64,000 bases of DNA from Macrostomum lignano. Taxonomy: Eukaryota. The position numbers and the translations under genes were made by a program. The notes below the pieces were generated by a model. It made no database searches. It was given only the letters and a program-made list of their open reading frames with translations, and was not told where the DNA came from. Within the stretch, counting starts at the first letter, position 1. Each line of letters begins with the position of its first letter. The stretch is taken from assembly GCA_002269645.1 (NCBI GenBank), contig NIVC01002503.1, forward strand, positions 102,728 through 166,727, given 5' to 3'. Shown here piece by piece: positions 42,281 to 53,792 of this stretch.

Positions 42281-44602
42281 TGATGTAACCGCCCTTGTCG
42301 CCTGTCCGCCCCGTAGAGAGACGAACGCATGGCTAGAGGGGGCAATGACCGTAGGCTGCCTATGACCGGGCAATGACCTGACGGACCTCCAGCACCAGAC
42401 TGTCCCGCCCACATGATTAGTAGCTTTGGTAGCGCTTCGTGACCAGAGGGCCAAGGACCCACATGGACCCCACCTGTAGCCAAGGTGCAATAGTTGGTCA
42501 CTCGGTCATGGTATGACCGAGTGGCTGCCACCACTCTATGTGACCTGGCGCACCTGGATCTTTCTACCAGACCTCTCGAGGCTAGAGCCCCGCCTGGATT
42601 GGTTACCAGGGGATTTAGGCTAACAGGGGAGACGCATGCAGCCGAGTACAGGGACTCTGCTTGGGGCATGATCGGGAACTCTGGGCTCAATCCTGGAGGA
42701 TTTCTCAGCAGGGGATCCTTTGTGGCTGTGAGCGAGGCTGACTTGCGACTTTGATTACTAAGAGTAGTATGAGGCGAACATGTACTGTCTACAGTTTAGA
42801 TTGCTCAGGGCGAAGGGACGCGTTAGCATGGGGTTGCAACCTTCCTACTGCCATTCTGTGCCAAGACTCGCTAATCCCTCTACTGCACGCACACGCGGCC
42901 CCGCAGCACGCACTCACAGGCGGGCTTTGCACGGGGAGAGGCCATTAGCTTACCCAAACTTCCTTATGCTTTGCCACCCCGGGAGAAAGGCTTAGCAAGC
43001 CATGAGTGAAATGATGGTGAAAGATTGAATAATGATGAAGTTAGTTAATAGTTAATAATTAGGCCCTTAGGCAAATAAGCAGGCAATTAGGCGGCTTCAC
43101 TATTGAGTAAAATACAGCAAAAGATACGGTATCACAATTGGCTCAGCTCTCTAATCAGACAATGGAAAATAGGCAAACCCCGGATAAGCAAAGGCAATTA
43201 GAGCACAAATTAGTAGTAGGAACTTACCGGCAGCTGCACAGAGAGAGAGAGAGGCGGAGTGACCGAGGGCGGCTGTAGGCTGCAGTCAGGCAGACGGTGA
43301 AGCGGCGATGCGCTGGAGCGACGAGGCGCTGATGTAGATCAGGCGATGCTGATGATGCTGGGCGGTATCAGACCGCTGGCCGATAGGCGAGCTCACTTGG
43401 GGAGCTAAGGATAACTTGGCGGTAACAGACCGCGGACCGGCAGGGATTCGTCTTATAGACGAATGGGTCAGAACTCAATCTGACAGCAAGTCCAAAGAAG
43501 GACGAGGAGAGGAACAGAGATAAACTCAGTTGAGTATTCTCATGCCGAAATCGCTTCCTTTTATAGACCTCACAGCCGCCTCCTCAAGGTCGTTACCATG
43601 GCTCCCTCTCTCTGATTGGCTGCCGGCAGAATGACGTCAGAATGAGTCATGATGAGAAGCATGAGACCGGCATAGCAACATGAGAAATCGGGAAATTGCG
43701 CAATCCGGAGGTGGGGTGGGGGGATAATTGGCGCAGCGGGTGGTCGCGAAAGTGTTGCGCAAGCAAACATTGAGAACAATAGGGCTGGGGTCGAGAACAA
43801 AGGAATTGGAAATCGGGGATAATTGGGGAAAACTGAGAACAATGGAAAAGTAAACATTGGAGAAAAGGTGATAATTAGGTGCGAAAACGAGAACAAAAGA
43901 AAGAGAAAATCGGAGAAAATGTGATAATTGGTGGGGGTCGAGAGAACAAAAGAAGTAAAAACGAGAACAATAGAAGCGGAGGTGGGGTGGTTGTCGCATG
44001 AGAAATTTGGGGAGGAGAACAATAGCATGAGAAAAGGTTGCGCAAGAGAGGGGGATGAGTCATCGATGAGTCATCGGGGGGAAGAAGGGGTCACACGACT
44101 TGCGTCACCGTTTGGGAGTTTGGGAGGGGATGGGGAGACGGTGAGCACACAAAATACTGTAAGTAGACACAGAGAAGGAGGGGACAGCGCAGGAAAAAAA
44201 GTGCAGAGAGAGATAAAAAGAGGGGGGAAAGGGAAAGTACAGGAAGAATAGGGCGGAAACAGAAGAGATAGGGTAGAGGGGGAGGTACAGAAAGGGGTAG
44301 GGGGCTCCGGAAAGGCAGGTGTGGCGGCAGGAGAGACGGGACCAAGGCAGCAGGAGGGGTGCAGCAGAGCGGGAGTCTCCAGGCCCGGTCGGAGACCTGG
44401 CCGAGTCTCGACAGCTCTGTGCAGAGGGTGCACGGGATAGGAGGCACTTTCGAAAAAGTTCCCATGCCCTATCCCGCGACCAGAGCGTGGTTACATCACA
44501 CCCCCACTGCCTTTTGTGACGGAACTGGTTCCGTCATCATCACTGCCCAACATGGAACCACACAGACGGGAGCGGGATCTCAACCGAACGTGAAATCACA
44601 GA
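42281..44602 (-). repeat. 3' LTR of element A (at least 2.3 kb; right boundary undetermined)
   Basis: Matches 61693-64000 with scattered substitutions and homopolymer indels. Confidence 0.85.
43521..44075 (-). promoter_or_regulatory. Putative LTR A promoter/enhancer
   Basis: Minus-strand TATAAAA at 43559-43565 with an Inr-like motif 25 nt downstream. CRE (43632-39), AP-1 (43643-49, 44056-62, 44067-73), C/EBP palindrome (43695-704) and repeated GAGAACAA. Confidence 0.5.
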
Positions 44603-53099: not shown

Positions 53100-53792
53100 C
53101 CACCGTAGTCAAGGGGATAAACTGCGGCGACATTGCAATTTGATAATTTATATAGCTAACTAAAATAAATAAAATAAAAATAAAACACTAGCAGAATTAG
53201 CATAATATGCCGACAGTATAAATACTATATTGTTCTAACGCAAGAATATATATAATATCGCAGCACCCAACTCCGACTGCACCTGGTCGGCGTTGCCGTA
53301 GTCTATAGAATACACTACGGCGCTAGAAACAAATAGTAGATAAGACATTAGCCTTAGCTCAAATATTCAAAAGTAAACTAAAAAATTAATGCATAAATAT
53401 GGCATAAAATAATGCATATATTGGTCGAAAAATGAGTACGAGATGAATACTATAAATATAATAGTTGTCAAAATATTCTGTAGACGTCCTCTGCCTGCAT
53501 CGGCGTTGCCATAATCGATAAAATACACTAGGGCACGTATAAACATTATAGCAATGGCAAAAATGATTAAAATAATTGATAGCAATGGCACCCGTTCGGT
53601 GTTGCCAAAGTCGATGAAATGAATAAGTGCGTCATCTCTGACGCTAATAGTAATACCCCGAAACCATGTAATGTGCAATATACGGTTAGTAATTAAAGCA
53701 TAACTACTGGCGACTAGTGAAACGCATAAATAACTCAAAAAGGAAAATAAAAACTGAAAAAAAGCAACCATTGAAAACTCGAAAAAATGCAT
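53100..53792 (-). other. Four Tudor-domain-like fragments, antisense to element B
   Basis: WFRGITISVRDDALIHFIDFGNTERVP, LVYFIDYGNAD, VVYSIDYGNADQV and (weaker) AVYPLDYGGW, separated by AT-rich spacers. Confidence 0.7.

Follow-up and report, generated by a model that had tools for sequence, protein, structure and literature searches.

Antisense fragments of host Tudor and zinc-finger genes in the 3' UTR of a Ty3/Gypsy retrotransposon of Macrostomum lignano

The element and its 3' UTR

The window, the whole stretch of 64 000 nucleotides of Macrostomum lignano DNA that was analysed here, contains a complete, young Ty3/Gypsy LTR retrotransposon. An LTR pair, a target-site duplication, a primer-binding site (PBS) and a polypurine tract accompany gag followed by protease, reverse transcriptase, RNase H and integrase, and the LTRs are 99.76% identical to each other over 831 columns. 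Residues 20−260 of pol match proteins named Macrostomum lignano with 100% identity. The 3' UTR holds an A-rich stretch of 0.9 kb, bounded by 81-bp and 26-nt tandem repeats, and it is here that five short blocks, or islands, are found. We refer to this stretch as the cassette. The features, in positions of the window, are as follows.

45320−46149, plus strand: 5' LTR with TG...CA ends, just preceded by the 4-bp target-site duplication ATGT (LTR comparison)
46156−46172, plus strand: PBS, adjoining the LTR on its inner side, presumably of tRNA-Gln type (from the sequence)
46892−48040, plus strand: gag frame with a PNMA-like capsid and a CCHC knuckle (ORF and Pfam)
47947−52683, plus strand: pol frame with cold-shock domain, protease, reverse transcriptase, RNase H and integrase, in Ty3/Gypsy order (Pfam)
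52695−53018, plus strand: 81-bp tandem repeats, the 5' edge of the cassette
53048−53135, minus strand: island 4 block, which reads AAVYPLDYGG and has 26 copies in a genome search
53287−53327, minus strand: island 3, 37/41 nt identical to the last Tudor domain of the multi-Tudor gene G (host DNA comparison)
53488−53534, minus strand: island 2, a G-type Tudor piece, 38/47 nt identical to the C606 copy of gene G at the same site as island 3
53587−53636, minus strand: island 1, 45/50, 45/50 and 44/50 nt identical to the copies of gene P on C3307, C2379 and C1210
53637−53810, no strand assigned: A-rich spacer containing indels, with an identity of approximately 0.90 across 16 copies
53811−53937, minus strand: island 5, two overlapping pieces comprising the ATG and first approximately 32 codons of an orphan gene with a C2H2-like zinc finger
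53998−54390, plus strand: GC-rich tandem repeats of approximately 26 nt, the 3' edge of the cassette
54829−54842, plus strand: polypurine tract (from the sequence)
54843−55673, plus strand: 3' LTR, followed by ATGT (LTR comparison)

In this copy gag and pol occupy separate frames (46892−52683), while other copies of the family have single open frames of 1923−2062 codons. The cold-shock domain of pol (48040−48240, residues 32−98; Pfam CSD, E 9e-7, above the cut-off) lies between the gag knuckle and the protease; cold-shock-like sequence is also present in the sister families P0003 and P0005, and none of the papers listed in our literature search pairs such a domain with LTR elements. Eight non-autonomous copies (L009, L016, L020, L021, L024, L028, L030 and L115) have lost nearly all of gag-pol and retain the cassette. 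Elsewhere, the window holds a second Ty3/Gypsy gag-pol with integrase (1205−5129, minus strand), an open frame of 955 codons for which Pfam gives no family at the cut-off (13668−16535, minus strand), a host-like ORF matching the ZNF598 PAH domain (E 4.5e-12) and, weakly, C2H2 (30475−31701, minus strand), a weak PNMA-like gag frame (58378−59124), and near-identical duplicated segments at 42281−44603 and 61693−64000, 19.4 kb apart.

Host genes represented in the cassette

The islands had been described, from the sequence alone, as four peptides encoded on the minus strand, and they are present as described: islands 1−3 share a frame, islands 1 and 2 are spaced by 96 nt, and the islands are GC-rich (49−56%) compared with the AT-rich spacers (21−33% GC). 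The proposal that they are captured snippets of host Tudor genes is supported, as regards origin, by DNA comparison with host Tudor loci (150 of 167 candidates, which gave 144 matches, with at least one copy fetched per apparent gene), in which the Tudor islands are approximately 81−90% identical to two specific genes, P and G, and antisense to the element RNA. Both are intact multi-Tudor genes (PF00567); the element holds fragments of host coding sequence while the host genes remain whole. BLAST against 419 kb of host Tudor loci gave E-values of 1.4e-12 and 2.5e-9, or approximately 3e-9 and 5e-6 when scaled to the genome by arithmetic. In fixed 48-nt windows compared with 41 host Tudor motif contexts (median 24), the best gene against the next gene scored 43 versus 31 for island 1, 39 versus 31 for island 3 and 35 versus 29 for island 2; the matches are gene-specific rather than a generic Tudor likeness. 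Homology breaks sharply at the island edges. Across 48 loci every principal island match is antisense to the element RNA, the same-strand matches being solely 28-nt echoes that stem from a palindrome at the G site.

Island 1 corresponds to the first Tudor domain of P. The source sites of island 3 lie in gene G at G000:C197:~261.3 kb and also on C606 and C2574, with a secondary match (27/31) to gene D on C719, which encodes a B-box and several Tudor domains, a layout we take to be that of Qin/RNF17. The Tudor islands fall on what we take to be the codons of the aromatic cage of the Tudor domain. Multi-Tudor and B-box plus Tudor genes are linked generally to the piRNA pathway. A published table ties such Tudor genes to piRNA (PMC12147562), and PDB searches for the orthology of G and P returned generic Tudor matches or none. 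Most host genes have three copies here, which fits an allotetraploid species with a redundant assembly; M. lignano is described as a hidden allotetraploid, and its assembly as redundant (PMC12801592).

Island 5, a fifth captured block from a non-Tudor gene, had been overlooked. Its source copies are on C94, C2623 and C337, with identities to C94 of 76% (97 nt) and 86% (43 nt), and to C337 of 84% (44 nt). The zinc-finger protein has no Pfam family at the cut-off, Atlas matches all at 0.80 or below, homologues in this species only or as short pieces, and a structure model with pLDDT 44 and no fold match. A broken paralogue is present on C255, and a 29-bp tandem repeat ending in the acceptor-like TTCTGCAG reaches the ATG of the gene (L101:4723-5400, L103:4746-5400). 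As the islands derive from at least three different genes, the suggestion of a single decayed captured gene is excluded. We conclude from these sequence comparisons that the feature is a real multi-gene antisense capture cassette and not a Tudor protein.

Island 4 fared less well as a Tudor fragment. Four genome searches returned element copies only, and its best match among the 41 host Tudor motif contexts was 23/48 nt (median 18). It is identical to island 3 at 21/29 positions and may be a drifted duplicate of it. A search for a host source of the spacer at 53637−53810 gave nine non-element matches at two mismatches, below the control of 16, and the four of these that were inspected were matches of 18−20 nt only. 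Folding gave short stems only, with six 100-nt windows at z −2 to −3 and no long hairpin over the islands; a structured RNA or pre-miRNA source, for which a long island-spanning hairpin was sought, was set aside. A plasmid sequence search gave no match and was uninformative.

The sequence-only reading had also noted a 141-aa ORF and raised the possibility of a mini-Tudor decoy made by antisense splicing. The ORF exists, with 145 codons from stop to stop (53370−53804), 141 from the first ATG, a TGA and then 43 codons, but it is private to this copy: in 12 of the 13 near-identical copies with an island 2 anchor a stop lies 21 codons after island 2, and the stop variant is read in contigs of all four sequencing runs compared. 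A continuous antisense ORF was rejected as a candidate on account of the stops in related copies. The Pfam TUDOR profile touches island 1 (E 1.9e-4) at 21.9 bits, under its cut-off of 23, and no other island, while the 43-aa and 36-aa frames have no Pfam family; membership of PF00567 was rejected, the match spanning profile positions 68−97 of 121 in an ORF that is broken in 12/13 copies. The polypyrimidine/AG (approx. 53160) and GTGAGT (53043−53048) are present as sequence. No joint occurs at these sites, each of four runs from four studies yielding one unspliced contig over 52928−53762; none of these runs is recorded as RNA, a status only guessed here, and as their contigs reveal neither strand nor RNA origin the indication against splicing is a weak one and nothing follows on expression.

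In a comparison of the three host copies, all from this species, the target of island 1 in P stands out as a divergence hotspot. In the target window 8/50 positions are variable, against 45/1410 elsewhere in the exon (p 3e-4), 11/260 in the flanks (p 0.005) and 0/50 in the second Tudor domain of P; five other Tudor motif windows have 0, 2, 0, 0 and 1 variable positions of 50. Six codons differ, four by amino-acid changes (A/S, H/N, L/I and F/Y) and two silently. A duplicated exon downstream in gene P (L081:7724-7890; also L080 and L109) carries a stop within the targeted motif and is the best match of some element islands. From this dead exon the P target differs at 10−13 of 50 positions, against 8−10 of 116 outside the target in a gapped alignment, and the exon could act as a decoy target. 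The zinc-finger copies (L101:3961-4722, L103:3981-4745 and L139) differ in 57/106 codons early in the gene and in 7/145 after. Another host Tudor gene (G000:C266:191-195 kb and C263:46-50 kb) has near-identical Tudor domains in tandem, one every 630 bp.

Retention and turnover of the cassette

The region is multicopy rather than unique to this copy, with 63 matches at the 40 loci scored of 55 candidates. Among copies found by a pol query (40 scored of 53 candidates), 38 of the 40 keep at least one island, so that capture is a feature of most copies, as for captures of the TART-A/nxf2 type; in the remaining two the sequence is interrupted immediately after pol. A Tudor island is present in 46 of a set of 48 loci, found mostly via cassette queries and thus of biased ascertainment; a zinc-finger island is likewise present in 46, and 44 loci have the two together. 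Both kinds persist in subfamilies with a divergence of 15−31% at four-fold sites of pol, in which the spacers have for the most part been rearranged or can no longer be aligned. Nine copies from three sister families (60−66% protein identity) have no Tudor or zinc-finger island. In sister-family copies L144, L147 and L150 a short A-rich patch lies 3' of pol, in which no island was recognized against the host loci compared.

We aligned 16 of 19 intended close copies, counting codon positions from alignment columns. The earlier expectation that islands should be better conserved than spacers fails for substitutions and holds for indels: identity is 0.90 and 0.90 for the Tudor islands, 0.81 and 0.94 for the zinc-finger pieces and 0.85−0.93 for the spacers, whereas the Tudor islands have no indels and the spacers 1.8−2.4 per 100 nt. 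Island variation falls mostly at third codon positions, and variant codons are silent in 18 and non-silent in nine cases for islands versus 66 and 248 for spacer frames (p 1.6e-6); these counts are not independent, given the common descent of the copies and the redundancy of the assembly. Cassettes differ by 14−26% between copies with 0−5% four-fold pol difference, which indicates either a more rapid turnover of the cassette than of pol or its exchange as a module. One copy with 99.4% identical LTRs also has a divergent cassette, so the variants are not merely old decay. In P-type islands 8/13 variable sites overlap sites that vary between host copies (p 0.03), 9/17 minor element alleles also occur in a host copy, and subfamilies differ in which host copy their zinc-finger islands resemble.

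Possible action of the cassette and known parallels

As the captured fragments are reversed, only sense-strand RNAs could pair with the host mRNAs. We computed the pairing of U-starting sense 30-mers and found that, with at most one G:U, it is unbroken from g2 as far as g18−22 for the three P copies, g21 for G and g19 for D, a single guide at 53287 fitting both G and D with one G:U each. For the two zinc-finger types pairing reached g19, again with at most one G:U, and g12, compared with g8−10 for controls from pol and the LTR. There is no excess of G:U-compatible mismatches (48 versus 51 transitions). M. lignano has piRNAs of approximately 30 nt with sense ping-pong partners (PMC4604429). Sense piRNAs exist but not on Macpiwi1, whose piRNAs are mainly antisense to transposons (PMC4604429); these are the wrong strand for pairing with host mRNA, and a model of this kind thus depends on the sense pool.

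We consider it probable, at roughly 60%, that the 3' UTR is an anti-silencing cassette, whose islands would give rise to sense piRNAs that base-pair with host mRNAs and cleave them. Slicing of the element RNA by the host would yield sense piRNAs, those made from the islands would cut and so lower the mRNAs of silencing factors, and the feedback would grow with the strength of the host attack. P, G, D and the zinc-finger gene would, on this reading, act in transposon silencing and the element would gain from their reduction. With the aromatic-cage codons as the target, a single guide could serve against several Tudor genes, and the host would be left to escape mainly via silent or conservative changes, a limit that may explain why the non-coding islands vary in a codon-like manner, at third positions. 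The anti-silencing reading is favoured by the gene-specific matches, the second and unrelated target, the uniform orientation, the retention of islands across subfamilies, their lack of indels and excess of silent changes, the overlap of variable sites with host copies, the P hotspot, the computed pairing, the sense ping-pong partners in this species and the precedent in flies. Several observations count against it. The best 30-nt window is only 24/30 for island 2 and 25/30 for the zinc-finger island of this copy, and the oldest subfamilies pair only to g11−13 in the computation. No hotspot is seen at the targets in G (0/46) and D (0/50), and the zinc-finger copies diverge over approximately 110 codons, beyond the 32 captured. 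In flies, captures at 79−82% identity have almost no host piRNAs (PMC13534243). We offer more tentatively, as rather short of an even chance, a fuller version in which the cassette is a modular, re-tunable array of piRNA-sized antisense guides, through which the sense piRNAs made by the host would knock down the orphan zinc-finger gene as well as several Tudor genes, the latter at the constrained codons of the aromatic cage. Element subfamilies and host gene copies would then chase one another codon by codon, and the array would flag the orphan as a new transposon-silencing factor.

The same aim could be served by another effector, with full-length element RNA pairing directly with host mRNAs and no piRNAs involved; duplex over the zinc-finger start codon might block translation, or short duplexes might feed Dicer and RNAi. 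The zinc-finger island spans the ATG and approximately 30 codons and is only 72−85% identical over 78−128 nt, which is more in keeping with a long duplex than with slicing, and the antisense orientation requires no processing. Dicer and RNAs of approximately 20−22 nt occur in the species (PMC4604429). The Tudor islands, however, are 41−50 nt long, or approximately one to two piRNA lengths, and lie mid-coding, and there is no long hairpin over the islands, so we regard direct pairing as unlikely. Also rather unlikely is a neutral origin, whereby one old capture seeded homology-driven template switches at reverse transcription and the islands are passengers. That island identity is not above spacer identity would fit such an origin, as would the resemblance of the islands to mosaics and duplicates of one another, the absence of Tudor islands in two copies and of the zinc-finger island in two, and the nine sister-family copies without either. 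It leaves unexplained the zero indels, the retention of both target types in the deepest subfamilies, the restriction to a few codons per gene and the P hotspot.

Antisense micro-peptides or a spliced mini-Tudor acting as protein decoys would account for the third-position bias in the Tudor frame, and an ATG starts island 5 in many copies while donor- and acceptor-like motifs exist. Against this, an in-frame ATG upstream of island 1 is present in only 2/16 copies, a stop lies six codons upstream in 4/16, and most copies stop directly after island 1. No other near-identical copy but one of 13 could have the long ORF open past the stop after island 2, the splice-like signals are not kept across subfamilies, and the contig over 52928−53762 is unspliced in the four runs of guessed RNA status; the approximately 15 residues available are also too few for a Tudor barrel. 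With no conserved ORF, start, donor or acceptor, the spliced decoy proposed earlier now seems very improbable. We give equally little credence to a tuning that benefits the host, in which the islands enable transcripts of host Tudor or zinc-finger genes to initiate antisense piRNAs directed at the element, or damp an over-active pathway. It follows from the orientation that piRNAs from host mRNA would complement the element RNA, but the copies that carry the islands are actively spreading (LTR pairs 99.2−99.8% identical), a setting in which selection favours the element, and the P site of the host diverges away from the match.

Among the papers found, capture of silencing genes as a counter-defence has been shown in animals only for fly telomeric LINEs. 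If the anti-silencing reading is correct, an ordinary flatworm LTR element with reversed, guide-sized inserts from several genes would point to a general strategy and a new route via sense piRNAs. The cassette would also single out three or four host genes, including one orphan, as the adversaries of the element, and it suggests a screen for 40-nt host matches in transposon UTRs, largely missed by protein-level searches. The reading can be tested with small-RNA data of a kind already published for M. lignano, a transgenic model species.

Sequence borne by an element and complementary to host mRNA is familiar from plants, where Pack-MULEs, Helitrons and Athila siRNA854/UBP1b are sources of trans-acting small RNA. 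These plant captures differ in using the siRNA pathway, in being mostly longer and in having no focus on a single protein motif. The Ty3/Gypsy (Ty3/Mdg4) elements described from M. lignano have the same domain order and LTR anatomy as the element here (PMC12801592); the main text of that paper contains no occurrence of Tudor, captured, antisense, piRNA or cold shock. Our literature search, with most subscription papers outside its coverage, found no report of Tudor-gene capture or of such a cassette.

The closest parallels come from flies. In the capture of nxf2 by TART-A (Ellison et al. 2020; PMC7785250), pieces of a host gene likewise lie in a retrotransposon 3' UTR, in four blocks of 63−228 bp at 93−96% identity. 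They are fixed in the family, and the host target region evolves faster (PMC7785250); here, a divergence hotspot is seen in P only. TART-A is a telomeric LINE of Drosophila melanogaster with one captured gene (PMC7785250), whereas here a flatworm Ty3/Gypsy element has pieces of at least three. The guides of TART-A are antisense to the element and are backed by piRNA and degradome evidence (PMC7785250), while the pieces here are reversed, with computed complementarity and Tudor pieces of 41−50 nt, so this would be a variant rather than a plain member of the type. Drosophilid telomeric elements have repeatedly captured aub, piwi and CG12520, with up to eight amplified fragments per element (PMC13534243), and they share with our cassette a lineage turnover of captured regions, approximately 90% identity, one uncharacterized target and, here indicated for P only, accelerated host evolution. 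Those captures are of 140−235 bp, from PIWI genes and in Jockey-type LINEs, in contrast to the Tudor motif codons and orphan zinc-finger start found here, and the word Tudor does not occur in the main text of the paper (PMC13534243). By analogy, the mode of action of the M. lignano cassette would probably resemble that of the TART-A/nxf2 and aub/piwi captures.
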